Source: Clostridiales bacterium (lineage in GTDB: Bacteria > Bacillota > Clostridia > Lachnospirales > CAG-274). From it: DNA of 64,000 nt. Position numbers and translations under genes: made by a program. Of the stretch, positions 27,899 to 55,633 are shown piece by piece. The notes below the pieces were generated by a model that was given only the letters and a program-made list of their open reading frames with translations, ran no database searches and was not told the origin of the DNA. How positions within the stretch are numbered: position 1 is the stretch's first letter; every line of letters starts with the position of its first letter. Location: assembly GCA_021204175.1 (NCBI GenBank), contig JAJPZT010000075.1:35123-99122 (forward strand), written 5' to 3'.

Positions 27899-27929
27899 TT
27901 GACAAGGGGGGGGTCAGAAAGCTTATAAT
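27899..27929 (+). promoter_or_regulatory. consensus -35/-10 promoter with a G8 tract in a 19-nt spacer
   Basis: TTGACA (27899-27904), then A plus G8 (27906-27913) plus TCAGAAAGCT, then TATAAT (27924-27929). Confidence 0.5.
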
Positions 27930-30210: not shown

Positions 30211-30239
30211 TTGAAAAAGTTCTTGAAGTGGTATATAAT
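30211..30239 (+). promoter_or_regulatory. sigma-A-type promoter upstream of the giant adhesin gene
   Basis: TTGAAA (30211-30216), a 17-nt spacer, then TATAAT (30234-30239). Confidence 0.5.
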
Positions 30240-30330
30240 AATTAAAAAGAACTTAAGGTTTGTGTAAAACTTTTTTAATGAAATATTAATAAATTGTTAA
30301 ATATGATCTCTTTCATAAAATAAAAATGAA

Positions 30331-30339
30331 GGGGGGGGG
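30331..30339 (+). repeat. G9 homopolymer 5 nt upstream of the adhesin TTG start
   Basis: Counted directly from the sequence: ATGAA-GGGGGGGGG-CTCGG-TTG. Confidence 0.8.
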
Positions 30340-30344
30340 CTCGG

Positions 30345-33300
30345 TTGGGCAGAAAAAATCAGTCGGAAGACAAATATTTTAAAAAACAAAGACGTAAAAA
30401 ACTATGGCACCGTTTGCTTTTGGCAGCCGGTTCCATTGTTGTGTTTATAACCACTTATATGCTTATCCTCCCTGCCATAACCGCTGAGGTGGGCTCAATC
30501 GAGCTTTTCGACGAGTCCCTTTCCTCCGGCAGCGCAGTAACCCCCGTCGAAGACGAAACCTACATTATTATAGAAGAAACTACCGAAGAAACGGTTGAAG
30601 AAACCACCGAGATTATATCTGAAGAAACAACAGAAGACCCGTCTGAAGCCCTTTCCGAAGAAACCTCTGACCAAGCCTTAGAGGAAACTACATCGGGAAC
30701 AAGCTCCGGCGGCACAGATACCTCCGGCGGCGAAACTTCCGAAGAAACTGCCGAAGCTGCCACAGATGAGGTCTCTGAGGAAATAACCGAAGAAGCAGCG
30801 GAGGAAACTACTGAAGAGGAGTTTGTTATAACAGCCGACAGTATGATTTATGCTCTTCTGGGCGAAGCAGGCATAGCTCTCACAAGTGAAGAGGACGGAG
30901 AAGAAGAGGAAGACGACGGCTCAATCGAGCTTACCCTTACCGCCACAGTCAGCGGCAGCAGCTATTATACTGACACATATGGCACTGAAATATCATTCAG
31001 AGGAACGGGAACAAACGACAGCTATAACTGTGAATATGACCCTGACACAGGTAACTTTTCCGTAGACCTTGCTATCGACTTTGTAATGTCAGCTGCGATT
31101 TTGACAAGCGGCAATGTAACCGATTATAACAACGACACTCTTAACGGCAGCTATTACGGAGTTTATTCAATCGATTTACCTGAGGGAATTATAGTTCCCG
31201 ACAATGTTCTTAACAAACGTTACGAAGGCGTTATTTCCGGAACAAGCACCGTACTTTTTGACCTTTATTTTGAGAAATATACAGACGAAACTACCGGAGC
31301 AACTCGCTACAGAGTTTATATGGGCTTTTTAAACAGCCAGATAACAGGTAATGAAGAGACAATCAAAGGTACAATCAGCCTTGAGGGCTACATCAGCTCA
31401 TCCAGCTACAGCGACGGCAGCGTTGTCGTAACGGTAGGCGGTGAAAATGTTATTGAGATTTCACCGGATGAAATAACCTACAGCAGCGGCGAAACCATAG
31501 ACGAGGATATTTACGTTAAAAAATCAGGCTCTTACAACACAACCACAGACGAAAGCGGAAACACTACATCAACAGTCAGCTACACTGTTATGGTTTATAC
31601 CAAAAAGGGTACGGGTGAAACCATAACCCTGACCGACAGCTTTACTACGGAGTTTTCTTCTTCCGTTTTGTCTGACCCTTCAAGCAGCCTTCAAAGCATA
31701 ACCGTAAGCACAGGCACAAACACAGCCTATGTTTACTGGGAGGGCAAAGCAGATAATTTTAATGACAGCGAATTTGTAGAGGATACAGAAAGCCCCATAA
31801 CTCTTACTAATGGCACAGGAAACTACACTTATTATTATGACATCGACGGAAATTTGGTTATTACTCTTCCCGGTCTCAGTGATGTAGACGGCAAAGACGG
31901 ACAGGAAACCATTCTTGGCAGCAGTGACTGGAGATATTCAAAGGAAGATGTTGAGGTTTATTATGTAACCTACACCTATAAGGTAAGCCCTCAATATTCT
32001 GACTCCACTGCCAATAACACCGTTAAGGCTTCAACAGAGGACACAACAGCAGTCGAAACCATAACCGACACCTCCTCTGCTGAGGTTACCGTATCCAAAA
32101 AGACCGCCATTTCAAAAACAGCGGAATATTATACCGAGACAGACAGCGACGGCAATGAAAACGGCTATATAAAATGGACTATTGTAGTGGGCGACGGCTC
32201 AGCCTCTCTTGCAGGCTATACCCTGACGGATACAATGTTCAGCTCCGTCGGAGGAATAGAAGCCCTCAATTATAGTTCATTATATGAAAATGTTCATGTT
32301 TATACCGGCTCTTCAGAAGATGACAGCAACTTTGTTTATCAATACTATCCGGCGAACTGTTTTAGTATTGTAGATGAAAACGGCGTATTAACAGGCATTA
32401 AATTTCTCGAAGATGCCGAAAGTCAATATACAATCGTCTATACAACAGAAGCTTCTTCGTGGGATCAAACATATTTATCCAACACGGCTACCCTTACCCC
32501 CACAGAAAGCACAGACCCCGATGTTACATATACCCACGATTACGGAGATTCGAGCTTGTCGGCAGGCACAGAGGTTACTGTTCCTGCGGCAGGGGGCGAC
32601 ACCCTTGACAAAAAGATAGGCACTCCCGAATTATCCTCTGACGGAAAAACCTATACCTTTCCCTGGACTGTAACCATAACCATTCCCACAGGGGGCATAC
32701 CCGCCGGGTCTGAAATCGAAGACAGCCCCAGCACGGATAACCACTATATGACCTATGACCAGGCTAAGGCTCTGGGTGAGCTTGTTCACGAGGTTTTCGG
32801 CGACAACACCTACGTCTCCGTAACCTTCAGAAACAGCAGCTGGCAGTGGATTCATATAGACAACCTTGACGAAAGCACTTATTATTACGGCTATAAAATA
32901 ACCTTTAATAAAGCTGTAGCCTATGAAACCTATTCACAATATACAAATCTGACCGAAGATAATAAGCAGAGTTTAGGCTTAATTGACAGTTTCACCTACA
33001 CATCGGGCGACACCACTGCAACAGCCTCATATGATCATTATGACAACAAGGTTACTTTAAACTACTACTCCACAGGCTCAATATCCGACAGTCCCGCTTC
33101 AAGAACCTTTTCAAACACAGTCAGCGGCGGCGGCAGCTATAAGTCGGCTTCATACACTTATACAAATAATGTGGTTAAATACGGCTATTATCAGTCTCAC
33201 GGAACTGCCACAAGCCCCTACGCCACAAGCTTTACATCGACTGACGGCGAGGTCTCATGGGTAGTTAAGGTAGTTTTAGATACCTCCAACAACTGTTATA

Positions 33301-36300
33301 CCATAACGGATACTCTGCCCACAGGGGTCACTCTGAAAAAACTTCAGGTTTCAAACAGCGCATCAGATTCCAACAGCAAGTCAACACTGTATGCGGAAAC
33401 AACCACCGTTGATCCCTCTGTTGAAACCACCACAGCTGACCCCTCGACGGAAACAACTACCGCAGACGCCGGAATTTCCGAAGGGGAAACCCTTTCGGGA
33501 ATATATGACGGTGACTTAGATGTTTCCTACACGCTGGGCACAAGCGACAATACCGTTACGGTTTATGCCAATTACGGTGAAAATGCCAATGCAAGCAGCA
33601 TAACCCTTTATCTTTTCTATACCTGTCAGATAGCCGATGACTATCAAGGCGAAAATACTGCTTTTAATAACACTGTAAAAGTAAAAAATACTACTACCGA
33701 CAAAGACTACGGCTCAGGCTCTCAAACCACAACGGTATATTGGGATGTCTCTACGGGAACGGAAACAAAAACCGTCTCAAAGGATGACTATTTCGACACC
33801 AACAACAACAAAATAAAATACGCCATAACCATAGACAATGACAACGGAAACCCGTATACATATACTGTGACAAATGAAGACGGCTCAACAAGTCAGGAAT
33901 ATGACGACGATATGGTGATTTACGACGTCCTTTCCTACAACAGCTACCCCACCTACGGTCTTGTAAGAAGCGCAAGCCTTCAAAGCGACACCCTTAAGGT
34001 ATATGTAGACGACGGAACGCTGACCATAGCCGAAGACAAAACAGTCAGCGGCGGAACAGAGCTTGATTCGTCTCAATACAGCTGGACTCTTGAAAAGGTG
34101 GTCAACACCGGCTATGACGGAACGGAAGCCGTAGTTCAGACAATAAAGGTTACTTTGCCCAATGACGGAAGAAAATATGTTTTAGCATATGCATATAAAA
34201 TATCTATCATTACAGACGAAGTTTGGGCGAATAACTACACCTGGATCGACAACGACGGCACTGACGTAAAGGCTCACGCCACAAACTACGCCTATCTCAC
34301 CGTAAACGGCGAAACCAAAGTAACAACAGACTCAATTGAAACAACGGAATCCTATAACTTTGATTCGGTATCAGCCGAAGGAAGTACGGGTACGGGCTAC
34401 ACAATATATAAGGTTGATAAAGACAATTTCGCCCTGAAGCTTGAGGGAGCAACCTTTGACCTCTATGTTTATAACAAGGACGCTACCCCTGTAGGCTTTG
34501 AAAAGGTAGCAAGCATAACCACCAATTCAAAGGGCACAGCAAGCATTTCCGGCGTTATAAAATATTTGGACACATCTACGGGAACTTATTATGACCAAAA
34601 AGGCGATAACTGGGAACCTTACTACAGAATAACAGACCCCTCAGACAGCTCAAAATACATCTATATTCCCATAAACACACTCTGTTATTTTGTAGAGTCT
34701 GAAGCACCCACAGACTATCAGCTTGACGGAACAAAATATTATTTCTATTACGGCGAAACCATAGCCACTCTTTTAACAAGTGTTACAGGTCACGAATATG
34801 CCACTGACGTAACAGAAGCCGTAAATATTATTTTGGGCAATTCGGAGTATATCACTAACGGCCACACAGTGGATTATTACTCTGAAAAAACAAAAATTTC
34901 CGTTATAAAGTCATGGACGAATAACGAAGAAGACCCTAACGACACATACGAAAAAACCGACGACAGCCTTAACTTCACACTTTACAGAATCCGCAAGGAC
35001 TTAGACGGAAACTATTGGCCTGAAGAAGATGATGAGGACGAAACGTCTACCTCTGAAGGAGCAACGGAAGCCACAACCGAAGTGGTTACAGTAGGAGAAA
35101 TACCTTGGCAAGTAGATTTTCAGTGGAGTACAAATGTTGCTTCAGGAACTGTCGGGTATACAGAAAACACTAATTCATTAAAACTATCTTTATATCATCA
35201 ATATGCAGCTATAAATGAATCTGCCGGATATATATGGTATCCGGGGGTAACAATAACTGACGGAAACAGTAATGTTTTAGTAGAATATACTGGGTCGTCT
35301 TATGGTGAGGGTACGCTTGTAAGCGGCAATGGTTCTTGGACGGGTTCAACGACCAGTGCTGTAGGAGGTACATTTACAGCCACGATTAACCTAACAGATT
35401 CTGTTAAAGAAAAAGGCTTGATAATTAAACTTACCGATACTAACAATAGCGACACAGAAATATCTGTTTCTTTTGCTCTGTCAAGTGCTTCTGCCACAAC
35501 CACCACAGAAGCGGCTTCCGAGGCCTCTACCGAAGAAGTTTCAGAAGTCTCAACGGAAACCACCACCACAGTCCTCTATGCTCACGTTTTCCAAGACGAC
35601 GTAATAGAGACCACCACAGACGAACAGGGTAACTCCGAGGTGGTGGGGCACACCTTTAATAACGATTATAAGGATTATGAAAAGATAACCGATTCAAGTG
35701 AAAACTTCTTCAAATTCTACGGGGCTTTGACCGACACAAACGGCTCACAAACCTACAACGCTTACAAAGCCAACACAGCCACGCTGCTGACCAGATCCTT
35801 CAAGATGCAGACCAACGTAGACAGCGTCGTGGGCTCAGGCTCAACGACGATTGAATTCACTTCTCAATTGGGCGGTGTGCTGACTATGGTTTTCACAGAT
35901 AAAACCGACACCAACGCAGTAATTATTAACAGCTCCGACGGAACATCTCTAAACAAAACGGCGTCTAACTATAAGCTTCAGTGTCACCTTGACGCAGGCA
36001 GCTACACCATAAAAAAGAGTACATCCTCTTATGTAGTTTACATCTCCTTTGAAGAAGGAGCAGGGGATACATCCTCAGACGGCAACTCCGAGATTTTGAA
36101 CTTCAACGACGGCACAAAAGCCAACGACTTCTTTACTGTCAGCGGCTCCACAACCAGCAGCTACGGCGAGGTTACATATGTAAACTACTACGACACAAGC
36201 TTTACAAGTGCGACAGCTCTGAAAATGGGTTCTTCCTCGTCAATTACCTTTGAAAGCGCAAACGCAGGCACTCTCTATATGGTTTTCACAAACCCCAAGA

Positions 36301-38951
36301 AGGCTGCCTCCGTAGGCGCAAGTATCGACGGTAACGAACACAAGGCGTCAATCACCGACACAACCACCACAGACGGCGAGTATTATATATATGTGCTTTC
36401 CACATACATTGAAGCCGGCAGCCACACAATTAAGAGAATAGGCTCTACCGAATACCTTCTTTATTACATTCAGTTTGTTCCCGACGATTTCGGAAGCGGC
36501 GAGTGGAAGGAGCTTAACACTGACATAACCTCTATTGGCAAGAAAGTCAGCACCTTTACAATAAGCTACGCTTCAAACTGGCGGTGGACCTCAGAAAGTC
36601 TGCCAAGCCAGTGGATTAATGAAGAAACAGGCGAGGTTTTAGGCTACTACGAATATTACGTAGTTGAAGAAAGCCGCTATGACCCTCAGGACTCTTCAAA
36701 ACAGTGCTTCTATACCCTTTATATGAATAATGAGGGTATCGTCTCAGGCTCAATTAAGGTTTCAAACCGTATTAACCCCACTACAAGCGGCGTTGTGAGC
36801 CTTGACGTAAACAAGGTTTGGTATCAGGACGGAAAACAGCTGACATCACCGACAATTGACGACTACTCCGTTTCCTACACACTTTACAGAAAGGTCGTTC
36901 TTCTTTCCTCAACCGATCAGGACACAGGCGGAACTTATTCGGTGAACTTCGACAACAACATTTCCACCTTCTTCACCACAACGGGCACAACCCAGTCCGG
37001 CTCTTCAACCATAGGCACAGGCAACTACGGCGGCACGTCATACTCAACCACTCTTGCTTTTGACAGCACTTCAAGTACAGCCCCAAGCATAGCCTTTGAC
37101 ACCTTAGCCGACAGCGGCGTCCTGACCCTTGTTTTCAGTACGTACCTTCCGCCGGATGTCTATAACTCAAGCTCAAGCTATACCTCCGGCACTACAAACT
37201 ATGTCACCGCCGACGGAACTAACTATTATGCTATTTCTGATGACAGCGGCACTTTGAACAATACATTATATGTTGTTGACAGTTCTTCCTCAAGTGGTTA
37301 TAAGGAATGGGACGGCTCCGGTACATCTATAACCTATTATGCATTCTTTAACGAGAATTTGCAGGTTGATGAAAAGTATACAAGTGATACGAGCTGGAAT
37401 GATGATGATTTTACTTATACAGGCGACACAGACGATACAAGTAAGTTAGTACAGATTTATCAGTATACTGCAAATTCAATAGATGCTACTATGTATCGTC
37501 AAACTGATGCAAATAAGTTCGACAGAAGTAACGGTAACGGAAAAACCTATACTCTTGCAAGAACAAACAGTAACAGCAGTACTACTGATCCTAACAATTT
37601 TACAAGAATAAGAAATAATACATTAACCACAACCGTTGACGAAAAAACCGTAACCGGCGATGGAAAGTGTATAAATCTCTACAGAAGTACTGATGGCGGA
37701 AAAAGCTTCGTATCTATGGAGGGATATACTATAGACGAGGTTAAGGATCAGGAAACGGAAATTAACAACAGCCGTGCCTACTACATAAAGTCAGGCGACA
37801 GCTACATCCAAACCGACGGCAAATTCTACACCCTTCAGCAGTACAACACTGTGGGCTACGCCTTTACCCTGACTGTCCCCGGAGAAACATCAACTGTTTA
37901 TCAGTATGTTTATAACCCGGACACCGAAACCCTGACCATAACCGCAGGCGGCTCGGAGGTTTACAGCGGTTCAATTTCAGACTGCCCCGCAGCTTATCTC
38001 ACAAGCCTTGACATAGACGAAGACAACAACACTGTGGTCTTTGAAATTCCTCTAAGTGTCTACACGGGAGACTACTCAAGCGGCTATAAGGTGGGCTGTG
38101 TAAGCTCGGCTCTCTGTTATCTCTATTATGCCGAATATTTCTATAAGTATAATGACGCTAAAACCGGTATTGCCGTAGGCACAGGCACACTTGACGCCTC
38201 TAACGACTGGTCTGAAGAGTGGAGCAGTCTTACCTACCCCGTTTATGACGCAGAGGGCAACGGCACAATTATAGGCTATTATTCCTATTACATTGTGGAA
38301 ACCTCAGCCGACGGCGAAACGGGAACAACCTATTCGCCCACATATTCAGTCACTATGTATACTCAGGCTCTTGATTCTGACCTTGCTGACCTTGCGGAGA
38401 CGTATAAAGCGACGCTTACTCCTGATGAGAACACTTCAGCAGGAACAACGGCTTACTATAATAGTGATAGTGAACTTATTTATACTGAAACGGCAACAAC
38501 TGACGGCGAGGGTGTTACAACCTACACATATACGGCTTCAAGCGGTGAAACAATTTCGGATATTACAACATATCTTCTTAATTTGTATCTCGAAACTCTT
38601 GAAACCGATAAAGATTCCGAGGGCAATATTACCTATTGCAATACAACCCGTGATCCTAACGATAACTCTGTAATAAGCTCGCAGACGGTTTTGTATTATC
38701 AAGTCTCTGACGGAAACTATTATATCGTTTCATCTGTCAATGACGGCACAAGCTTAACGGCTGCTACCGCAGAAGCCGCTAAAATCAGCAGCTTCACAAT
38801 CACCAACACGGTGGAGGTTCAGGACGTTGTTCTGCCCTCAAGCGGCGGAGACGGCGGATTTAAGTATATTTTAGCAGGAACGCTCACAAGCCTTGGGGCG
38901 ATTCTGCTTCTATATAAATGCAGGAAAGGTTTGAGCACAAACTCCCGATGA
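30345..38951 (+). CDS. giant (2868 aa) sortase-anchored surface adhesin, pilus tip-adhesin candidate
   Basis: Has a basic N-terminus plus TM signal and an E/T-rich acidic linker. Repeated Cna-A-like K...W.I.V modules are present. SpaA/Cna-B-like modules occur (GATFDLYVY...YFVESEAPTDYQL; KISVIKSW...; LDVNKVW...). The C-terminal sorting signal is LPSSG (38832-38846) plus a hydrophobic helix plus KCRKG. Confidence 0.85.
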   Translation: MGRKNQSEDKYFKKQRRKKLWHRLLLAAGSIVVFITTYMLILPAITAEVGSIELFDESLSSGSAVTPVEDETYIIIEETTEETVEETTEIISEETTEDPSEALSEETSDQALEETTSGTSSGGTDTSGGETSEETAEAATDEVSEEITEEAAEETTEEEFVITADSMIYALLGEAGIALTSEEDGEEEEDDGSIELTLTATVSGSSYYTDTYGTEISFRGTGTNDSYNCEYDPDTGNFSVDLAIDFVMSAAILTSGNVTDYNNDTLNGSYYGVYSIDLPEGIIVPDNVLNKRYEGVISGTSTVLFDLYFEKYTDETTGATRYRVYMGFLNSQITGNEETIKGTISLEGYISSSSYSDGSVVVTVGGENVIEISPDEITYSSGETIDEDIYVKKSGSYNTTTDESGNTTSTVSYTVMVYTKKGTGETITLTDSFTTEFSSSVLSDPSSSLQSITVSTGTNTAYVYWEGKADNFNDSEFVEDTESPITLTNGTGNYTYYYDIDGNLVITLPGLSDVDGKDGQETILGSSDWRYSKEDVEVYYVTYTYKVSPQYSDSTANNTVKASTEDTTAVETITDTSSAEVTVSKKTAISKTAEYYTETDSDGNENGYIKWTIVVGDGSASLAGYTLTDTMFSSVGGIEALNYSSLYENVHVYTGSSEDDSNFVYQYYPANCFSIVDENGVLTGIKFLEDAESQYTIVYTTEASSWDQTYLSNTATLTPTESTDPDVTYTHDYGDSSLSAGTEVTVPAAGGDTLDKKIGTPELSSDGKTYTFPWTVTITIPTGGIPAGSEIEDSPSTDNHYMTYDQAKALGELVHEVFGDNTYVSVTFRNSSWQWIHIDNLDESTYYYGYKITFNKAVAYETYSQYTNLTEDNKQSLGLIDSFTYTSGDTTATASYDHYDNKVTLNYYSTGSISDSPASRTFSNTVSGGGSYKSASYTYTNNVVKYGYYQSHGTATSPYATSFTSTDGEVSWVVKVVLDTSNNCYTITDTLPTGVTLKKLQVSNSASDSNSKSTLYAETTTVDPSVETTTADPSTETTTADAGISEGETLSGIYDGDLDVSYTLGTSDNTVTVYANYGENANASSITLYLFYTCQIADDYQGENTAFNNTVKVKNTTTDKDYGSGSQTTTVYWDVSTGTETKTVSKDDYFDTNNNKIKYAITIDNDNGNPYTYTVTNEDGSTSQEYDDDMVIYDVLSYNSYPTYGLVRSASLQSDTLKVYVDDGTLTIAEDKTVSGGTELDSSQYSWTLEKVVNTGYDGTEAVVQTIKVTLPNDGRKYVLAYAYKISIITDEVWANNYTWIDNDGTDVKAHATNYAYLTVNGETKVTTDSIETTESYNFDSVSAEGSTGTGYTIYKVDKDNFALKLEGATFDLYVYNKDATPVGFEKVASITTNSKGTASISGVIKYLDTSTGTYYDQKGDNWEPYYRITDPSDSSKYIYIPINTLCYFVESEAPTDYQLDGTKYYFYYGETIATLLTSVTGHEYATDVTEAVNIILGNSEYITNGHTVDYYSEKTKISVIKSWTNNEEDPNDTYEKTDDSLNFTLYRIRKDLDGNYWPEEDDEDETSTSEGATEATTEVVTVGEIPWQVDFQWSTNVASGTVGYTENTNSLKLSLYHQYAAINESAGYIWYPGVTITDGNSNVLVEYTGSSYGEGTLVSGNGSWTGSTTSAVGGTFTATINLTDSVKEKGLIIKLTDTNNSDTEISVSFALSSASATTTTEAASEASTEEVSEVSTETTTTVLYAHVFQDDVIETTTDEQGNSEVVGHTFNNDYKDYEKITDSSENFFKFYGALTDTNGSQTYNAYKANTATLLTRSFKMQTNVDSVVGSGSTTIEFTSQLGGVLTMVFTDKTDTNAVIINSSDGTSLNKTASNYKLQCHLDAGSYTIKKSTSSYVVYISFEEGAGDTSSDGNSEILNFNDGTKANDFFTVSGSTTSSYGEVTYVNYYDTSFTSATALKMGSSSSITFESANAGTLYMVFTNPKKAASVGASIDGNEHKASITDTTTTDGEYYIYVLSTYIEAGSHTIKRIGSTEYLLYYIQFVPDDFGSGEWKELNTDITSIGKKVSTFTISYASNWRWTSESLPSQWINEETGEVLGYYEYYVVEESRYDPQDSSKQCFYTLYMNNEGIVSGSIKVSNRINPTTSGVVSLDVNKVWYQDGKQLTSPTIDDYSVSYTLYRKVVLLSSTDQDTGGTYSVNFDNNISTFFTTTGTTQSGSSTIGTGNYGGTSYSTTLAFDSTSSTAPSIAFDTLADSGVLTLVFSTYLPPDVYNSSSSYTSGTTNYVTADGTNYYAISDDSGTLNNTLYVVDSSSSSGYKEWDGSGTSITYYAFFNENLQVDEKYTSDTSWNDDDFTYTGDTDDTSKLVQIYQYTANSIDATMYRQTDANKFDRSNGNGKTYTLARTNSNSSTTDPNNFTRIRNNTLTTTVDEKTVTGDGKCINLYRSTDGGKSFVSMEGYTIDEVKDQETEINNSRAYYIKSGDSYIQTDGKFYTLQQYNTVGYAFTLTVPGETSTVYQYVYNPDTETLTITAGGSEVYSGSISDCPAAYLTSLDIDEDNNTVVFEIPLSVYTGDYSSGYKVGCVSSALCYLYYAEYFYKYNDAKTGIAVGTGTLDASNDWSEEWSSLTYPVYDAEGNGTIIGYYSYYIVETSADGETGTTYSPTYSVTMYTQALDSDLADLAETYKATLTPDENTSAGTTAYYNSDSELIYTETATTDGEGVTTYTYTASSGETISDITTYLLNLYLETLETDKDSEGNITYCNTTRDPNDNSVISSQTVLYYQVSDGNYYIVSSVNDGTSLTAATAEAAKISSFTITNTVEVQDVVLPSSGGDGGFKYILAGTLTSLGAILLLYKCRKGLSTNSR

Positions 38952-39095
38952 TGGGGCAGAGCTTAAGCAGAGCCTATGTGCTCAGACTGTGTAAATAAAA
39001 TTAAGGGAGATTTTAAAGACGAAGGGGAGAAACGGTCTTTTATATATAATCCCACGAAAGGAGTGATGTTTAGAAAAAGAGGATTAAATGTCAAT

Positions 39096-39189
39096 CGCTG
39101 AAAACATTAGTTTTCAGCGAAAGAGGAGGGTCAACGGAGTGCAGTCTTGCTTTGGCGTTTACGCCGAAGCAAACGAACGAAGTTTGACC
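39096..39189 (+). repeat. intergenic structured repeat, family A, copy 2
   Basis: CGCTGAAAAC-ATTA-GTTTTCAGCG hairpin, a TGCTTTGGCG-TTTA-CGCCGAAGCA hairpin, and an AAGTTTGACC tail. Aligns with copies 1 and 3. Confidence 0.75.
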
Positions 39190-39196
39190 CGACGAG

Positions 39197-39283
39197 CATC
39201 CCCTTTTAAGGGGAGGGGGACCGCCCATACTGATTTTTTGTAAAAAAATCAGTACAGGCGGTGGTGGGGTATGTTCCATTTGA
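39197..39283 (+). repeat. intergenic structured repeat, family B, degenerate copy fused to family A copy 2
   Basis: CATCCCCTTTTAAGGGGAGG, a long hairpin ACCGCCCATACTGATTTTTT-GT-AAAAAAATCAGTACAGGCGGT, and a GGGGTATGTTCCATTTG tail. Confidence 0.65.
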
Positions 39284-39405
39284 AGCTACTAATTGAAGCT
39301 ACTAAGTCTTTGTAAATGGAACACAGTAATTGTGCAAACTCGGCAATATCAAGTAAAAAATCGAATAGATGGGAAACAACTCACACACAAATAACGACAA
39401 TTTGT

Positions 39406-39415
39406 GGGGGGGGGG
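39406..39415 (+). repeat. G10 homopolymer in the pilin-1 leader
   Basis: Counted directly. It lies 70 nt upstream of ATG 39486. Confidence 0.8.
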
Positions 39416-39485
39416 TAGATTTAGCCGGCCCGTATTAATCGGAAGCGTTTATCAACCTCCACAACTAAGAAAGGATGGTACTTTT

Positions 39486-41219
39486 ATGAAGAAAGTAACA
39501 AGATTTTTTAGCCTCCTCCTCGCAATAGCAATGGTTTTGGCAATGAACTTCGGTACTTTCACCGTTCCGGCGGAGGAAACTACCTATACACTTACAATTA
39601 ACAAACCCACAACGGGACACACATATTCGGCATATCAGATCTTCACAGGTGTTTTGTCTACAGACGGCAAGACCCTCTCAAATATTGCTTGGGGCTCTGC
39701 TACGACAGCTAAATCTTCGGATATTATCACAGCTTTAAAAACTGAACTTGGCTTAGCAGATAACACTGATTACTCAGCAGCCGACATAGCTGCATTGCTT
39801 ACAACAGGCAATATTGAAGCAGTAGCTAAAATATTAGCAACTTATAACGAAGGCTATACATACTTAGGCTCTGCAACATCTTCAGCTGAATGTACAGAAG
39901 GCGGTGAAGGGAAAATCGTTACTATCAGCAAACTTCCCGCAGGTTACTATTTGGTTATAGATACCTTAACAGGTACAGTTGCAGACTATGACGTATATTC
40001 ATCATACATCATTGAAGTAGTGGGAGACGCAACAGCTACCACAAAGCAGGACACACCTGAAATTCAAAAGAAGGTTGACGATAAAGACGATTCTACAGGT
40101 ACTGAAGACAGCACAAGTTGGCAGGATTCAGCTGACTACGACATCGGCGACGCAGTTCCCTTCCAATATACTGTAAAATTGCCCAGTAATTATGCTGACT
40201 ATGACACATATAAGCTCATATTCCACGATGAACAGAGTGACGGCTTGACATTCAACAATGATGTGGCAATAACAGTTTACATCGACGGCGATACAGAAAA
40301 CACATCTCAAGAGAATATTGTTGAACTTTCAACTACTCAGTATAAGGTTAATACAGATCAGCAAAGTGACAGCTGTGATTTTGAGATTACAATCAGTGAC
40401 TTAAAATCTGTTTCAACTTCTATTACTGCAAGCAGTGTAATCGTTGTAACCTATACATCAACACTCAATGATCACGCAGCAGTGGGCTCAACAGGCAATG
40501 ACAACGAGGTTTACCTTGAATACTCAAACAATCCTAACGATTCTTCCAAAACAGGTAAAACTCCGAAGGATAAAGTAACGGTATTCACCTTTGATGTAGC
40601 TATACACAAGGTAGACAGCAGCGGTAATCCTCTGGGCGGCGCAGACTTCACACTTTATAAGTATGACGCCGAAAGCACAACTTGGGTAGAGGTTTCAACA
40701 GAAACTTCCACATCTGCAGACCCTTCAACCTCAAAAGCTGTTATAAAGACAGTGGAAGATGAATCTTATACTACAGTAGTGGTTGAGAACAGTACCGAAG
40801 TTACAACTACAGTAACCGTAGAAAAGAGCAAATTCACCTTCAGCGGTCTTGACGCAGGTCAGTATATGCTTAAGGAGACAACAACTCCCGACGGATATAA
40901 CACAGCCGCAGATACTTACTTCACAATCGTAGCTTCACACTCTACAACTGCATCTGATCCCGAACTTACAGAGCTTTATATAACAGACGCAGACGGTACG
41001 GTTTTATCGAATAAATATTCCGGAGAAGAAGGTGCTCAATCACCGACATTTACTGTTGATAATTCAGCCGGAATTTCGACTAACATCATAAACTACACAG
41101 GTGCTGAACTGCCTTCAACCGGCGGTATGGGTACAAAAATATTTTATACTTTGGGCGGAGTCCTTGTTTTAGGGGCAGGCGTTCTTCTGATTGTTAAGAG
41201 AAGAATGAGAAACGCTTGA
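39486..41219 (+). CDS. LPXTG-anchored backbone pilin paralogue 1 (isopeptide-forming fimbrial subunit family)
   Basis: Signal peptide MKKVTRFFSLLLAIAMVLAMNFG. E-box-like YMLKETTTPDGYN. A SpaA/Cna-B-like C-terminal domain. Sorting signal LPSTG (41109-41123) plus TM plus KRRMRNA. An AAAGGATGG SD precedes the start. Confidence 0.85.
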   Translation: MKKVTRFFSLLLAIAMVLAMNFGTFTVPAEETTYTLTINKPTTGHTYSAYQIFTGVLSTDGKTLSNIAWGSATTAKSSDIITALKTELGLADNTDYSAADIAALLTTGNIEAVAKILATYNEGYTYLGSATSSAECTEGGEGKIVTISKLPAGYYLVIDTLTGTVADYDVYSSYIIEVVGDATATTKQDTPEIQKKVDDKDDSTGTEDSTSWQDSADYDIGDAVPFQYTVKLPSNYADYDTYKLIFHDEQSDGLTFNNDVAITVYIDGDTENTSQENIVELSTTQYKVNTDQQSDSCDFEITISDLKSVSTSITASSVIVVTYTSTLNDHAAVGSTGNDNEVYLEYSNNPNDSSKTGKTPKDKVTVFTFDVAIHKVDSSGNPLGGADFTLYKYDAESTTWVEVSTETSTSADPSTSKAVIKTVEDESYTTVVVENSTEVTTTVTVEKSKFTFSGLDAGQYMLKETTTPDGYNTAADTYFTIVASHSTTASDPELTELYITDADGTVLSNKYSGEEGAQSPTFTVDNSAGISTNIINYTGAELPSTGGMGTKIFYTLGGVLVLGAGVLLIVKRRMRNA

Positions 41220-41257
41220 TTTCCCTCTGAATAGGGTTACGCTTTGAGAATAGGCTT

Positions 41258-41285
41258 CCCGCCTTTCGGGGCGGGGGCTTTTGAA
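41258..41285 (+). terminator. rho-independent terminator after pilin 1 (probably partial)
   Basis: CCCGCC-TTTCGG-GGCGGG followed by GGCTTTTG. Confidence 0.55.
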
Positions 41286-41467
41286 GAACCGCCGATATCT
41301 TACCGGCGGCTGTCCAAAGGTAAAAAATATTTTTGATAACTCCATATTATTCCTCTGTTAGCTGTCCTGTGGTATGTATAAGCCTTTCTGTAAGTGTCAG
41401 TCTATGTCTTAAGGGACAAAGCCAAAACCAAAAATGTATTTTGACACGAAACTTAATTTTTTAAAGT

Positions 41468-41474
41468 GGGGGGG
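41468..41474 (+). repeat. G7 homopolymer in the pilin-2 leader
   Basis: Counted directly. It lies 76 nt upstream of ATG 41551. Confidence 0.8.
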
Positions 41475-41550
41475 TAATCGATACGTTAAGGAAACCGTTT
41501 AACGTTTATCGTCCTCCACAAAAAAATCCACAAAGAAAGGACAGAATAAT

Positions 41551-43266
41551 ATGAAAAAAATATCTAAAATATTAAGCCTCCTCCTCGCATTAACTATGGT
41601 TCTCTCTATGAACCTCGGCGTTTTAACCGCTCACGCAGATAGTTACACAATTAAAATTAATGAAAGTACTACAGACTATAAATATGAAGCTTATCAGATC
41701 TTTGACGGCGATTTATCCGGCAATACTCAGGGCAGCTATGTATTATCCAACATCGTTTGGGGTACTAATATAAGCAAAGACGGAACTCCTGAATATTCAA
41801 CTGTAATGACAGCTGTTAAGGAAATAACAATTGACAATTCCACATATCCGTTTGAAAACTGCACCTCTGCTGCAGATGTAGCTGATGTATTGAAAGATCT
41901 TTCGAAAGATGCAGCCCTTCTGCAGGAATTTGCTGATGTAATCTCTAAATATATAACAGGCAGCGGTGTTGCAAGTGAGTATAAAACAGACCACTATGAA
42001 ATTTCAATATCCGACCCCGGCTATTATCTTGTAAAGAATACATCTGCACCTGATGAAGACGGAGTTTACACAAGATTTATTCTTTTGGTTGTAGGTGATG
42101 TTGAGGCAACTCCTAAGTCTGCTGTACCTTCAGTAGAAAAGAAGGTTTATGAAGAATCCTATAACAGTGTAGCTCAAGAAATATCCGATTACGGTACTTA
42201 TTTCAATGATGTAGCTGACTATGACATCGGTGATTCGATTGACTTCAAATTTATAGGTACACTTCCCGATAACTTGAGTTCTTATTCAACTTATAAATAT
42301 GTATTCCACGATACAATGGACGCCGGTCTTACTTTTGACAGCGACAGTGTTGTGGTTACTATTGACGGCACAACTGTTCCGGCATCATATAGTGGAACTA
42401 CAAACTACACAGTTGTTTATGACGCTTCTAGTGCACAGACTGACGGCTGTACATTTGAAATAAGCTTTAGTGATATTTTAAGTCTTGTGGATTCTACAGG
42501 TGCAAAAATATCAGTATCAAGTACAAGCAAGGTTGTTGTTACATATAAAGCTACACTGAATGAAAATGCTAAAATAGGTCTTCCCGGCAACGTGAACGAA
42601 GTTTATCTTCAATATTCAAACAACCCCAATGAAGGCGGCAGCGGCGACACAGGTACAACACCTAAAGACAAGGTTATCGTTTTCACATATGAACTTGACG
42701 TAACAAAGGTTGACGGAACTGATAATACTAAAACTCTTGAAAACGCTGAATTTAAGCTTTATAAGGAAGTAAGCGGCGTTAAGTATTATGCTAAAGTTAC
42801 AAACGGCAAGGTAACAGGCTGGACAACAGACCCAGATGAAGCTGCTGTATTAACTTCTGGCACTGACGGTAAATTCAGCATAGCAGGTCTTGATGACGGC
42901 ACATACTTCCTGTTAGAGACAAAGGCTCCTACAGGGTATAATCTTCTTTCCGACCCTGTTGAACTTACTATAACGGCAAACACAGTTAATGGTCAGAGCT
43001 GGTCCGGAACCGCAACTGATGCTTTAGCCGCATGTGACTCTAATACAGACCCTGACTCAGCTTCATTAACAATTACAGTGGGTACAGCAAAAACCAGCGG
43101 AAATTCAACTGATGGTACAGTTGGTACAACTGTAGCGAATAACACAGGTGCTACACTTCCCGAAACAGGCGGTATGGGCACAAAGATCTTCTACACATTA
43201 GGCGGAATACTTGTTGTTTGCGCAGGCGTTCTCCTTATTGTTAAGAGAAGAATGAGAAACGCTTAA
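41551..43266 (+). CDS. LPXTG-anchored backbone pilin paralogue 2
   Basis: Signal peptide MKKISKILSLLLALTMVLSMNLG. E-box-like YFLLETKAPTGYN. Sorting signal LPETG (43156-43170). The C-terminal tail GGMGTKIFYTLGG..AGVLLIVKRRMRNA is shared with pilin 1. Confidence 0.85.
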   Translation: MKKISKILSLLLALTMVLSMNLGVLTAHADSYTIKINESTTDYKYEAYQIFDGDLSGNTQGSYVLSNIVWGTNISKDGTPEYSTVMTAVKEITIDNSTYPFENCTSAADVADVLKDLSKDAALLQEFADVISKYITGSGVASEYKTDHYEISISDPGYYLVKNTSAPDEDGVYTRFILLVVGDVEATPKSAVPSVEKKVYEESYNSVAQEISDYGTYFNDVADYDIGDSIDFKFIGTLPDNLSSYSTYKYVFHDTMDAGLTFDSDSVVVTIDGTTVPASYSGTTNYTVVYDASSAQTDGCTFEISFSDILSLVDSTGAKISVSSTSKVVVTYKATLNENAKIGLPGNVNEVYLQYSNNPNEGGSGDTGTTPKDKVIVFTYELDVTKVDGTDNTKTLENAEFKLYKEVSGVKYYAKVTNGKVTGWTTDPDEAAVLTSGTDGKFSIAGLDDGTYFLLETKAPTGYNLLSDPVELTITANTVNGQSWSGTATDALAACDSNTDPDSASLTITVGTAKTSGNSTDGTVGTTVANNTGATLPETGGMGTKIFYTLGGILVVCAGVLLIVKRRMRNA

Positions 43267-43363: not shown

Positions 43364-43420
43364 GCTTCCCCTTTTAAGGGGAAGTACCTGCCGATAGGCA
43401 GGGGATAGGGTGCTTTCCAT
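43364..43420 (+). repeat. intergenic structured repeat, family B, short copy
   Basis: GCTTCCCCTTTTAAGGGGAAGT, a short hairpin CCTGCC-GATA-GGCAGG, then GGATAGGGTGCTTTCCAT. Confidence 0.7.
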
Positions 43421-43440
43421 TTGCCAGCCCTTAAATAGCG

Positions 43441-43550
43441 TTCCAATGGAACATACCCTATCGTCAACCACTGTGCAATTCTTTTTCCAATAAAATCGTG
43501 CGGAAAAAAGAATTGCACAGCCGTTGACACTTCCCCTTAAAAGGGGAAGC
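43441..43550 (-). repeat. intergenic structured repeat, family B, long copy in inverted orientation
   Basis: The reverse complement reads GCTTCCCCTTTTAAGGGGAAGTGTCAA, then a long hairpin (CGGCTGTGCAATTCTTTTTTCC...GGAAAAAGAATTGCACAGTGG), then TTGACGATAGGGTATGTTCCATTGGAA. Confidence 0.7.
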
Positions 43551-50117: not shown

Positions 50118-52550
50118 ATGACAGATACTTACGGCAGAACGGCAGTCGGCGAAAGATCAAAGCCCACAATTCTTATTGCGGACGATTCTGAAATGAACAG
50201 AGCCATTCTTATGGATATGCTGGAGGAAGAATATAATATTTTGGAAGCCGAAAACGGAGCTGAGGCACTTGTTATAATGAGAGAAAAGGTCGGCGGAATT
50301 GACCTTTTGCTTTTGGACATTGTTATGCCCAAAATGGACGGCTTCGAGGTTTTGACATATATGAACTCTCACCGGTGGATTGATGATGTGCCTGTTATGA
50401 TAATCAGCTCGGAAAGCTCAACAGGCTTTTTTCAGCGTGCCTATGAGTTAGGCGTTGTGGACTATATAAACAGACCCTTTGACGCTTACATTGTTCACAG
50501 ACGCGTAGCCAATATTATAATGCTTTATTCAAAGCAGAAGGATCTTGTAAATTTGGTAGCCGACCAGATGTATGAGAGAGAAAAAAGCAACTCTATGATG
50601 GTGAATATTTTGAGTCATATTGTGGAGTTTAGAAACGGCGAAAGCGGCACCCACGTTATAAATATAAGAGAAATAACAAACACCATACTTGAATATTTAT
50701 GTGAAAACACAGACAAATACAGCCTAATGGCTAAAGACATAAAGCTCATCAGCATGGCTTCGGCTCTTCACGATATAGGGAAAATCTGCGTGCCCAGCAG
50801 TATTCTCAATAAGCCCGGAAAGCTGACTGATGAAGAATATGAGATTATGAAAACCCACACCACCTTAGGGGCGGCTATGCTTATGGAGCTTAAAACATAT
50901 CAGGACGAGCCTCTGGTTAAATATGCCTATGACATCTGCCGCTGGCACCATGAACGCTATGACGGCAGGGGCTACCCAGACGGGCTTGCAGGAGATGCAA
51001 TACCCATTTGGGCTCAGGTTGTGGCACTTGCTGACGTATATGACGCTTTAACAAGCGAAAGAGTTTATAAAAAAGCCTTTCCCCATTCAAAGGCTATAAA
51101 AATGATTGTTGACGGAGAATGCGGAACATTTAACCCTGAGCTTTTGCGGTGCCTTATGGGTGTTTCAAACAAGCTTAAGCAAAGCCTTGCAGAGGCGGAG
51201 AGGTTCCAGGCGGATGACGAAAACCTGAAAAATGTTCAGGGGGTTATTAATGAGCTTCTGCTTTCCGACAGCAAGAAAGCAGGGGTTAATACATTTAAGG
51301 CTTTGGCTGCGGAAAAAGAGAAAACCGACTTTTTCGCTTCTGTTGTCAGCGAAATTCAATTTGACTATGACGCATGGACAGACACTGTTTCAATTTCGGA
51401 ATGGGGCGCAAGAGCTTTGGGCATAGACAGATTTATTTCAAACGTTCATTTTAAACACTCGACTTCTATGGATGAGGACGCATATGAAAAGCTGACAGAG
51501 AAGTTCAGAAAAACAACTCCCGAAAACCCCGATGTGGACGCTGTTGTGCTTTTAGAGGTAAACGGCGAAATGCGGTGGCACAGGCTTATAGGAAAAAGCC
51601 TGTGGACCGACGACGAGGATGTTCCCATGTATAAAGGGGCAATAGGCAAGTTTATAGACATTCACGAACAGAGCCTTTGGAACGCCGAAAACCACAGCGA
51701 GGTGGGCGAAACACAGCAGAAAATTATGGAGCTTATGGAACACTGCGGAAGCGTTTTTGACAGTGTAAGACTTATAAGCGGAGCCGACTGCAGAAAGGAC
51801 GACAGAGACGAAAGCCGTCAGGCTGAGTCAATAGAAAAATCTGCCGATTATGCTATGGCGAAAATTGCCTATGACAAAAAAGGTCAGGTTTCGAAAATCA
51901 GATTTGAAGGCTCTAAAATTTATTATATAATAGAGAAGTATATCGAAACAGATAAAGGCGGCTGTGTTTTGGAGCTTGTCAGCAGTGTAGACGAGGAGTT
52001 CGCTATGGAGTTTTCAGGCGGCGGAGAAGAGCAGATTGCGGACAAGATTATAAATTATAACAAAACAGCCCAGACCGACCCCTTGACAGGAGCCTATAAC
52101 AGGCGTTATTATGAAGAAAACGCCAAAGCATTAAGGAACATTGAAGGGGTGGTTATGCTTGATTTGGATAAGTTTAAGGACATAAACGATACATACGGTC
52201 ACAACGCAGGAGACGCAGCCCTTGTGTGTTTTGCGGAAACCATATTCAACAGTATAAGAGGCTCCGACATTCTTATAAGGCTGGGCGGAGACGAGTTTTT
52301 AATTCTCTTCCCGAGAATTAAGCGGGGAGCCTTTGAGGATAAGCTCGATATGATTTCAAACGCAGTTAAAAATACTTCGGTGGATGGTTATCCCGAGGTG
52401 AAGCTTTCCGCCAGTATAGGCGGCGTTTATAAAATGCACCCTGTTTCTAAGGCTATTAAAACAGCCGACAAGCTTATGTATGACGTTAAAAGCGGCGGCA
52501 GGGGCAGAGTTTTGTGTCATTTTGAAAAAACAACAGAAGATGGAGAGTGA
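50118..52550 (+). CDS. response regulator with HD-GYP phosphodiesterase and GGDEF diguanylate cyclase domains (REC-HD-GYP-X-GGDEF)
   Basis: REC domain (ILIADDSE...LLLLDIVMPKMDG). HD-GYP domain (ALHDIGK...HHERYDGRGYP). An unassigned region of about 270 aa. GGDEF domain with an intact GGDEF motif and I-site RGSD five residues upstream. Confidence 0.85.
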   Translation: MTDTYGRTAVGERSKPTILIADDSEMNRAILMDMLEEEYNILEAENGAEALVIMREKVGGIDLLLLDIVMPKMDGFEVLTYMNSHRWIDDVPVMIISSESSTGFFQRAYELGVVDYINRPFDAYIVHRRVANIIMLYSKQKDLVNLVADQMYEREKSNSMMVNILSHIVEFRNGESGTHVINIREITNTILEYLCENTDKYSLMAKDIKLISMASALHDIGKICVPSSILNKPGKLTDEEYEIMKTHTTLGAAMLMELKTYQDEPLVKYAYDICRWHHERYDGRGYPDGLAGDAIPIWAQVVALADVYDALTSERVYKKAFPHSKAIKMIVDGECGTFNPELLRCLMGVSNKLKQSLAEAERFQADDENLKNVQGVINELLLSDSKKAGVNTFKALAAEKEKTDFFASVVSEIQFDYDAWTDTVSISEWGARALGIDRFISNVHFKHSTSMDEDAYEKLTEKFRKTTPENPDVDAVVLLEVNGEMRWHRLIGKSLWTDDEDVPMYKGAIGKFIDIHEQSLWNAENHSEVGETQQKIMELMEHCGSVFDSVRLISGADCRKDDRDESRQAESIEKSADYAMAKIAYDKKGQVSKIRFEGSKIYYIIEKYIETDKGGCVLELVSSVDEEFAMEFSGGGEEQIADKIINYNKTAQTDPLTGAYNRRYYEENAKALRNIEGVVMLDLDKFKDINDTYGHNAGDAALVCFAETIFNSIRGSDILIRLGGDEFLILFPRIKRGAFEDKLDMISNAVKNTSVDGYPEVKLSASIGGVYKMHPVSKAIKTADKLMYDVKSGGRGRVLCHFEKTTEDGE

Positions 52551-52556
52551 TAAATT

Positions 52557-52919
52557 ATGACAATTAAAGAGTGTTATGACAAGTTGGGTTCTGATTTTGA
52601 AAGCGTTAAGGCAAGAATGATGAGTGAAAGGCTTATTCAAAAGTTTTCACTTAAGTTTTTGGATGATAAAAGCTATCCTAATTTGCTTTCGGCTTATGAC
52701 GAGGGCAGAGACGATGATGCTTTCAGGTTTGCCCACACATTGAAGGGCGTTGCTCAAAATTTGGGTTTTGACAGGCTTTATGCTTCTTCCGATAAGCTGA
52801 CAGAGGCTTTGAGAAACGGAAAAAGCGAAGGAGCCGACGGACTTTTGGAAGAGGTAAAGAGCGACTACGCTTTTACTGTCGGTATTATTAAAGAATTTAA
52901 GGAGCAGAACGGGTTATAA
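52557..52919 (+). CDS. Hpt-domain histidine phosphotransfer protein
   Basis: 120 aa with the AHTLKGVAQNLG motif (HxxKG). Confidence 0.75.
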   Translation: MTIKECYDKLGSDFESVKARMMSERLIQKFSLKFLDDKSYPNLLSAYDEGRDDDAFRFAHTLKGVAQNLGFDRLYASSDKLTEALRNGKSEGADGLLEEVKSDYAFTVGIIKEFKEQNGL

Positions 52920-52969
52920 GTCTCGCAAAGATGCACACTTAATTCTTATGTTTTTTGAGGGCTTGCTTT

Positions 52970-55609: not shown

Positions 55610-55633
55610 ACTTTCTTCGAGGAGACGATTTTT

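Follow-up and report, generated by a model that had tools for sequence, protein, structure and literature searches.

The 64-kb window that was analyzed (the whole stretch of DNA, from contig JAJPZT010000075.1 of a gut Clostridium) contains a pilus locus with two paralogous backbone-pilin genes, pilin-1 and pilin-2, and a run of G's lies in the leader of each. The run upstream of pilin-1 (G10 at 39406-39415, 70 nt upstream of the pilin ATG at 39486) is where the original prediction had placed it. Because its length changes between otherwise identical strains, the run most likely serves as a random switch or dimmer of pilus production. The tract is very probably a genuine contingency site at which slipped-strand events occur, and it is probable that its length modulates pilin output. 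We favor, tentatively, the further interpretation that a contingency tract acting through pairing within the leader RNA sets the expression of each of the two alternative major pilins. The evidence comprises the polymorphism of the tract, the conserved architecture of the leaders, and an island of rare codons in the pilin signal peptides.

Variation in tract length was apparent from assemblies that were otherwise nearly the same. An independent assembly of the same strain (L050) was 99.86% identical to the window over 4242 nt, with only four changes: G9 instead of G10 in the pilin-1 tract, G10 instead of G7 in the pilin-2 tract, T41512C, and one coding single-nucleotide polymorphism (SNP). A third assembly (L051) begins inside the pilin-1 tract and was identical to the window over 3976 nt from 39414, with the G7 of pilin-2 included. 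In a second strain background, the pilin-1/pilin-2 tracts were G9/G9 in assemblies L052 and L053 and G7/G9 in assembly L054. Over 4430 nt, L054 differed from L052 by one SNP and by the loss of 2 G's from its pilin-1 tract. Indels between near-identical assemblies were found only in the two pilin tracts (G10 versus G9, G7 versus G10, and G9 versus G7), and nine A or T runs of 6 to 7 nt in the same region did not vary among these assemblies. The original prediction had stated beforehand that a tract without polymorphism would count against it; the tract varies among near-identical strains (L050 and L052 to L054).

Long G runs are confined to the pilus locus. Only four runs of at least 7 G's are present in the 64 kb, at 27906, 30331, 39406, and 41468, all of them on the plus strand between 27.9 and 41.5 kb, and each is at the 5' end of a gene for an envelope or surface protein in this single locus. 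There are no C runs of at least 7 nt in the whole window. The number of G10 runs expected per window, estimated from base composition (G = 0.22), is about 0.03.

Thirteen homologous leaders were compared, from the window, five species-level metagenome-assembled genomes (MAGs), and one run; the runs designated X1 to X4 contain only contigs of relatives. The leaders share one layout: GT-Gn-TA, a variable inner hairpin, TATCnnCCTCCAC, and then a Shine-Dalgarno (SD) sequence. After the variable interior come (C/T)TATC-nn-CCTCCAC, an A-rich spacer, AAGAAAGGA, and the ATG. The leaders fall into two types, which correspond to the pilin-1 and pilin-2 leaders. Across the 13 leaders, the tract consisted of 7, 8, 9, 10, or 11 G's or was interrupted by A, and 11 retained an uninterrupted G7 or longer. 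Pilin-1-type tracts of G11 (L003) and G8 (L057) and a pilin-2 tract of G9 (X2 contig) were among those found. The CCTCCAC core was intact in 12 of the 13, with ACTCCAC in a contig of run X2 as the sole variant. The TA that follows the tract and the TATC that precedes the box were kept in nearly all leaders, and the interrupted JAJQBF leader has TTATC. Mature pilins are just 46 to 51% identical between genomes, yet the leaders and signal-peptide codons are nearly identical. Within the window, the box CGTTTATCnnCCTCCACA is present in exactly two copies (39446 and 41503, versus 0.03 expected), each upstream of a backbone-pilin gene.

The element has a narrow distribution. In a pattern scan of genomes it was confined to a small clade of uncultured gut Clostridia, apart from six matches in unrelated taxa, which are taken to be chance. 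Scanning genomes for the box plus the SD gave one real new leader, that of JAJQBF pilin-1; the other new matches were in unrelated taxa, and the five of these that were inspected look like chance. The same scan of the Joint Genome Institute (JGI) metagenome collection gave chance matches only, and the element was not found there. No leader match was obtained with Rfam 15 covariance models over 38900-41700, with two chance-level hits elsewhere in that interval (E = 0.63 and 3.9). In distant pilin homologs (about 42 to 46% identity), the pilin gene follows the adhesin gene after 60 to 75 nt, with no leader.

The original prediction had proposed that TTGTGGGGG can pair with CCTCCACAA with one G.U pair. 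This complementarity was confirmed, and the stem is present in the RNAfold minimum-energy structure of the pilin-1 leader. The same shape was predicted for every distinct leader that was folded (11 of the 13), with GUGGGGG paired with CCUCCAC. In most of these the last G's and the UA pair with UAUC, and an inner hairpin follows. The repeat is thus one arm of a predicted leader hairpin with a conserved complementary arm in 11 of 11 folded leaders; the arms are kept and the interior diverges. The inner hairpins have three unrelated sequences with variable loops (GTTAA/TTAAC, GCTTA.GGG/CCC.TAAGC, and GTC.GGGC/GCCC.GAC). For the pilin-2-type interiors, 0, 1, 9, 13, and 16 of 200 shuffled sequences folded as well. 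Insertions, of 23 nt in L003 pilin-2 and of about 90 nt in L006 pilin-1, sit apically. The SD lies outside the tract-box hairpin and is partly paired locally, with a mean unpaired probability of 0.33 to 0.51 across leaders.

In natural leaders that may be called locked, the tract is broken by G-to-A changes, as GAGGGAGGG in JAJQBF (L029 1-440) and by two such changes in X2, and the remainder of the leader is kept. The A of the JAJQBF tract stands opposite a U of the box, so that a G.U pair becomes A-U. The T41512C change (TATCGT to TATCGC) directly adjoins the pilin-2 box and is found in L050, whose pilin-2 tract is G10 instead of G7. The tract-box stem gains a G-C pair from this change, and a GUCCU:AGGAC pairing with the SD becomes weaker.

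The third line of evidence lies within the coding sequence. Codons 9 to 13 of the signal peptide are AGC CTC CTC CTC GCA in 10 of 11 leaders, the exception being L002 (CTT CTC CTC GCT). CTC accounts for 7.7% of the leucine codons in the open reading frames of the window, and the codons flanking the island vary between leader types. CCTCCTCC occurs in the 64 kb only at 39512 and 41577. Pilin paralogs and relatives that have no tract have no CTC island. The island is complementary to the poly-G tract, and partition-function scans of 12 leaders predicted the box as the partner of short tracts and the island as that of long ones. The predicted crossover between partners fell at n = 9 to 10 in pilin-1-type leaders and at 6 to 8 in those of the pilin-2 type, values within the range of n found in nature. 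The T41512C change of L050 shifted the predicted crossover from 6-7 to 9-10.

These features suggest the following mechanism. The G10 tract would gain or lose G's by slipped-strand events at high frequency, so that pilin-1 expression would vary from cell to cell, and the pilin-2 leader, with its own G7 tract, would be controlled separately by the same means. In the transcript, the tract would form the 5' arm of a leader hairpin, GU-Gn-UA ... UAUC-nn-CCUCCAC. Whether it pairs with the CCUCCAC box, which closely precedes the SD, or with CCUCCUCCUC at codons 10 to 12 might then depend on tract length, and the choice of partner could alter the structure of the leader and thereby mRNA processing, stability, or translation. 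This pairing within the leader RNA is favored over promoter spacing, a transcription start within the tract, a leader peptide, and a tract with no effect or targeted by a small RNA in trans. It is the only explanation that fits every leader, and it covers the rare-codon island and the variable inner hairpins as well as the two-block complementarity. A more specific model, which we consider unlikely in its full form, is a length-coded RNA toggle in cis: short tracts would be held in the CCUCCAC hairpin, and long tracts would capture CUC CUC CUC, looping around the ribosome-binding site. With a toggle for each of the two pilins, a clonal population would stochastically display pilin-1, pilin-2, both, or neither. 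The locus is probably a case of repeat-driven phase variation in which the clade-specific leader and a possible dual-partner pairing in cis are the new elements.

Several observations weigh against control through leader RNA pairing. The 59-nt pilin-1 hairpin was not significantly more stable than shuffled sequences (z = -1.2; 23 of 200 as stable), and the pilin-1 interior had no hairpin (z = +0.4). RNAalifold on a MAFFT alignment, in which the inner hairpins do not align, found 0 compensatory pairs in the outer stem, which is invariant and so offers no covariation. A covariation test of the stem was one of the checks that the original prediction had proposed. The ACTCCAC box of X2 is uncompensated. 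The mean unpaired probability of the pilin-1 SD was 0.40 to 0.51 at all tract lengths modeled and hardly changed with n. The scan over n is thermodynamic modeling with an assumed 5' end, which ignores cotranscriptional folding and ribosomes. All of the leaders are homologs, and thus their conservation counts as few independent events. Tract lengths were read from consensus assemblies of Illumina short reads, where poly-G is error-prone; such error may account for differences of 1 G but hardly for differences of 2 or 3. Furthermore, most known intergenic repeat switches use promoter spacing, and the G8 tract of this window lies within a TTGACA ... TATAAT spacer (27899-27929).

Promoter spacing is the main alternative. 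According to this explanation, which we regard as somewhat unlikely, the tract would be untranscribed and would lie between a weak -35 and a weak -10 hexamer, with the CCTCCAC complementarity incidental or serving some other purpose. Spacing is the commonest known mechanism for intergenic homopolymers, as at porA (PMC3639595), and the G8 tract sits in a 19-nt spacer between canonical TTGACA and TATAAT hexamers. The tract length is polymorphic between close relatives, as that class requires. Hexamers can be placed: ACGACA-(6+n)-TAGATT in the pilin-1 type, with a spacer of 16 at G10 and 17 at G11 (L003), and, in our reading of the pilin-2 type, TTTAAA, TTTACA, or TTTATA, followed by GT-Gn plus 5 to 9 nt and then TACGTT, TAAGTT, or GAGATT. 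The pilin-2-type spacers are 15 to 19, centered near 17, and shorter tracts accompany longer non-G parts. The original prediction had itself offered ACGACA-16-TAGATT as no more than a possible weak promoter and had judged no placement convincing. A scan for sigma-70-like promoters (at least 9 of 12 matches, with a spacer of 16 to 18) called none in either pilin intergenic region. Neighboring genes have clear promoters, TTGAAA-17-TATAAT at 30211-30239 and a 12/12 match on the minus strand at 27783-27755. The hexamers that can be positioned around the pilin tracts are all weak (7 to 8 of 12, chosen post hoc), and none of the positions suits all 13 leaders. The L006 pilin-1 and JAJQBF pilin-1 leaders have no -10-like hexamer after the tract, and most observed pilin-1-type lengths (7 to 9) would give spacers of 13 to 15. 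Spacing also leaves the two-block complementarity, the varied inner hairpins with their variable loops, and the rare-codon island unexplained. Sigma-54, extracytoplasmic function (ECF), and sigma-D promoters were ruled out because there were no consistent motifs.

A related and improbable explanation places the start of transcription in or at the tract. The abutting hexamer (TAAAGT, TACAGT, TATAGT, TAATGT, or CAAAGT) would be the -10 element, and tract length, possibly with reiterative addition of G's, would set the number of 5'-terminal G's that pair with CCUCC in an mRNA-protecting 5'-terminal hairpin. In Bacillus subtilis pyrG, reiteratively added 5' G's pair with the C/U-rich strand of a terminator. 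In every pilin-2-type leader, the hexamer next to the tract resembles a -10 element, with A as its second and T as its sixth base, and L006 pilin-2 has TAGACA-15-TATAAT 7 nt before the tract. However, the corresponding pilin-1-type hexamer, ATTTGT, is not -10-like, the TTGACA-like hexamers 13 to 15 nt upstream are too close for a -35 element, and the conserved GT:AC stem pairs are left unexplained. We give just as little credence to the idea that tract variation has no regulatory effect or is partly technical, with the hairpin serving as a processing or stabilizing element between cistrons or the tract as the target of a C/U-rich small RNA acting in trans. Contigs L051, L056, and L067 and contig 7 of X1 end at or in tracts, which may be technical and may reflect poor sequencing of poly-G. 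The interrupted, nonslippery tracts of JAJQBF and X2 indicate that the leader works without a homopolymer, and RepG shows that C/U-rich loops can target G repeats in trans (PMC8295292). Against a lack of effect are the 2-G and 3-G differences between otherwise identical consensus assemblies, the retention of an uninterrupted G7 or longer in most leaders, and the position of each of the four long G runs, which is the 5' end of a surface or envelope gene in one locus.

The original prediction had instead emphasized an upstream reading frame. It had invoked the precedent of Streptococcus gallolyticus pil1, in which the variable length of a leader peptide governs a terminator downstream. We consider it very improbable that the ATG at 39369 starts a leader peptide that spans the tract and that the position of its stop, set by n mod 3, governs a structure or terminator farther downstream. 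The frame arithmetic holds: the frame runs into the pilin at G7, G10, and G13, stops at TAA (39436-39438) at G6, G9, and G12, and stops at a TAG right after the tract at G8 and G11. The context ATGGGAAAC recurs in pilin-1-type leaders and in L007, and TAA or TAG is always present after the tract. In our reading, a -10-like TAAAAT or TATAAT lies 5 to 9 nt upstream of the ATG; if it is real, a leaderless start would be possible. However, the ATG has no SD, as had been conceded, the sequence before it being AAAAAATCGAATAG. In L003 a 1-nt indel ends the frame at a TAA ahead of the tract, and the same GACAAACTC variant is present in L057; among the pilin-2-type leaders no start codon is conserved. 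A scan of 38800-41700 found no terminator-like sites, and the hairpin is followed by the A-rich AACTAAGAAAGG or AAAAAAATCC with no U run. Thus, the S. gallolyticus analogy fails because there is no SD, no conserved frame, and no terminator. What survives of the broader proposal that tract length may couple to pilin expression is the polymorphic tract and the predicted stem with CCTCCAC, and what does not is the mechanism of leader peptide and terminator.

Other roles for the tract and the hairpin were ruled out. If the tract were an intragenic part of a 616-aa pilin, the frame would be open only for n = 7, 10, or 13, and the signal peptide would be buried inside the protein; the pilin ATG downstream of the tract follows an SD of its own and opens a canonical signal peptide that all relatives keep. 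An invertible promoter was rejected because the arms are just 7 to 9 nt and the interior is about 40 nt, and an intrinsic terminator on either strand because no U run follows the hairpin. The box is not a general anti-SD because GUCCU:AGGAC pairing is found only in leaders in which nn is GT. Nor are the inner hairpins a palindromic operator: the half-site spacing is 7, 9, and 10, and the sequences are unrelated.

Features of the pilin-1 and pilin-2 leaders and genes (positions within the window)
Feature	Coordinates	Strand	Description
GT + G10 homopolymer, pilin-1 leader	39404-39415 (G10 39406-39415)	+	Very probably hypermutable tract; 5' arm of predicted hairpin
TTGTGGGGG, 5' pairing segment	39402-39410	+	Complementary to CCTCCACAA, one G.U pair
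CCTCCACAA, 3' arm	39456-39464	+	Predicted to pair with TTGTGGGGG; contains core CCTCCAC
Last two G's of tract + TAGAT	39414-39420	+	Predicted fold: GGUAGAU pairs with GUUUAUC (39447-39453)
CGTTTATCAACCTCCACA box, pilin-1 leader	39446-39463	+	Named by the original prediction
Box copy 2, CGTTTATCGTCCTCCACA	41503-41520	+	Pilin-2 leader; CCTCCAC at 41513-41519
SD AAAGGA + pilin-1 start codon	39470-39488 (SD 39470-39475; ATG 39486-39488)	+	SD outside tract-box hairpin
AGCCTCCTCCTCGCA island, pilin-1	39510-39524	+	Signal-peptide codons 9-13 (SLLLA); second C/U-rich complement of tract
GT + G7 tract, pilin-2 leader	41466-41474	+	Leader of the paralogous pilin gene
AGCCTCCTCCTCGCA island, pilin-2	41575-41589	+	Signal-peptide codons; also unchanged in X2 and X3 contigs
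Upstream-frame ATG	39369-39371	+	Context ATGGGAAAC recurs in some relatives; reading frame not conserved
Pilin-1 gene	39486-41219	+	Backbone pilin, 577 aa; Pfam GramPos_pilinBB, SpaA, LPXTG anchor
Pilin-2 gene	41551-43266	+	Backbone pilin paralog, 571 aa; GramPos_pilinBB, SpaA, LPXTG anchor

The two remaining long G runs of the locus exemplify the two settings considered for the pilin tracts, a promoter spacer and a transcribed leader. The G8 tract at 27906-27913 is enclosed in TTGACA-[A G8 TCAGAAAGCT]-TATAAT, where G6 would give a spacer of 17 and G7 a spacer of 18. This site is 33 nt upstream of the gene for a 162-aa protein with a hydrophobic N terminus and no Pfam hit, and Logan contig L067 starts exactly at the tract. 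From its sequence, the G8 tract looks like a classic promoter-spacer phase switch. The G9 tract at 30331-30339 is directly 5' of the TTG start of the adhesin gene (30345-38951), which encodes a wall-anchored product of 2868 aa. The canonical adhesin promoter (30211-30239) is about 90 nt upstream, and therefore this tract lies inside a transcribed leader, where it may serve as an SD. An ATG at 30326 joins the adhesin frame at G8 or G11, and G9 was also found in L067, the sole other assembly seen. Pairing of the adhesin tract with a downstream CCUCCC was not robust.

In addition to the adhesin and the two backbone pilins, the locus encodes a sortase, a Cna_B minor pilin, and a second sortase. 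The RelA of this uncultured gut Clostridium is 82% identical to that of MAG JAJQFB and 62 to 64% identical to those of Eubacterium sp. CAG:274 and Ca. Gallispira. In our reading, a GC hairpin and a short U run follow each pilin gene, and the terminator scan does not call them. The 3' ends of the two pilin genes have 123 nt in common at 82%, and the pilin cores behave like exchangeable cassettes flanked by conserved arms (39369-39560 and 41430-41625, compared with L001, L003, L006, and L057). Upstream of pilin-1, at 39273-39322, a tandem direct repeat of two copies of TTGAAGCTACTAA (39280-39305) lies inside the inverted repeat GTTCCATTT / AAATGGAAC, with a related motif, GTTCCAATGG, at 43440; the repeat may be a small mobile or regulatory element. 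Upstream of pilin-2, at 41340-41440, the block GCTGTCCTGTGGTATGTAT...CTTTCTGTAAGTGTCA and the motif GCCAAAACCAAA are conserved ahead of pilin-2-type leaders (L001 and L003), and the block is tandemly duplicated in L001. Judged by sequence, these blocks look like putative protein-binding sites. An intergenic palindrome resembling repetitive extragenic palindromic elements, CCCCTT(TT/AA)AAGGGG, is present with similar flanks at 39200-39213, 43368-43381, 43533-43546, and 58591-58604. Six sortase contigs (L058 to L063) all begin at the copy near 43370, before reaching the leaders, and pilin contigs L050 and L051 end there. Downstream of the pilus locus, 50118-58564 encodes a response regulator that carries HD-GYP-like and GGDEF domains, along with two hybrid histidine kinases; these proteins could be part of cyclic-di-GMP-linked control of surface structures.

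Known systems share parts of this arrangement. The nearest functional parallels are hmw1A and tlpB, which are precedents for repeats that act within transcribed leaders. In Haemophilus influenzae hmw1A, (ATCTTTC)n in the 5' untranslated region forms a hairpin with a G-rich arm, repeat number acts posttranscriptionally, and cleavage by RNase III was shown experimentally (PMC12721329). As predicted for the pilin leaders, a hypermutable repeat upstream of a surface adhesin or pilin gene is a hairpin arm opposite a conserved complementary sequence. In contrast, the pilin repeat is poly-G with a C/U-rich arm in a Gram-positive bacterium, and a second candidate partner lies in the coding region. The Helicobacter pylori tlpB leader has a repeat of 6 to 16 G's that pairs with the C/U-rich loop of the small RNA RepG, giving graded regulation instead of a simple on/off switch (PMC8295292). 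The pilin leaders likewise have a variable homopolymeric G repeat upstream of the ribosome-binding site, which would be part of the mRNA in our model, and two candidate C/U-rich partners. The partner of tlpB is a small RNA in trans, whereas the candidates here, CCUCCAC and CCUCCUCCUC, are in cis. Phase variation of S. gallolyticus pil1 occurs via GCAGA repeats in a translated leader peptide and a premature stem-loop terminator (PMC3894217); it resembles the pilin leaders in having a leader repeat ahead of a sortase-pilus pilin operon in a gut Gram-positive bacterium and differs in the SD, conserved leader frame, and terminator that are missing here.

Sortase-dependent pili of another gut commensal, Bifidobacterium breve, are switched by replication slippage at an intragenic G tract, which causes a frameshift (PMC9187656). 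That G tract is likewise at a sortase-pilus gene, but the pilin-1 tract is not in coding sequence and lies upstream of a start codon with its own SD and signal peptide. In Neisseria systems of the porA/opc type, poly-G or poly-C between recognizable -35 and -10 hexamers modulates expression through its length (PMC3639595). A polymorphic homopolymer tract upstream of a surface-protein gene is common to both, but no consistent hexamer pair flanks the pilin tracts across leaders. It is the G8 tract at 27906 that fits the porA/opc type.

Stochastic variation of the cell surface is well documented in pathogens and Bacteroides. To our knowledge, it is little documented in uncultured Clostridia, which make up much of the gut flora. 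The locus described here is a compact case, in which each of two paralogous major pilins is behind a very probably hypermutable G tract in a conserved leader that is limited to one clade. If tract length does act at the RNA level, the locus would be a Gram-positive example of a DNA repeat that works via mRNA structure, and synonymous codon choice in a signal peptide would have been fixed by regulatory pairing. Tract lengths could also serve as a marker, readable from metagenomes, of the state of the pili in vivo.

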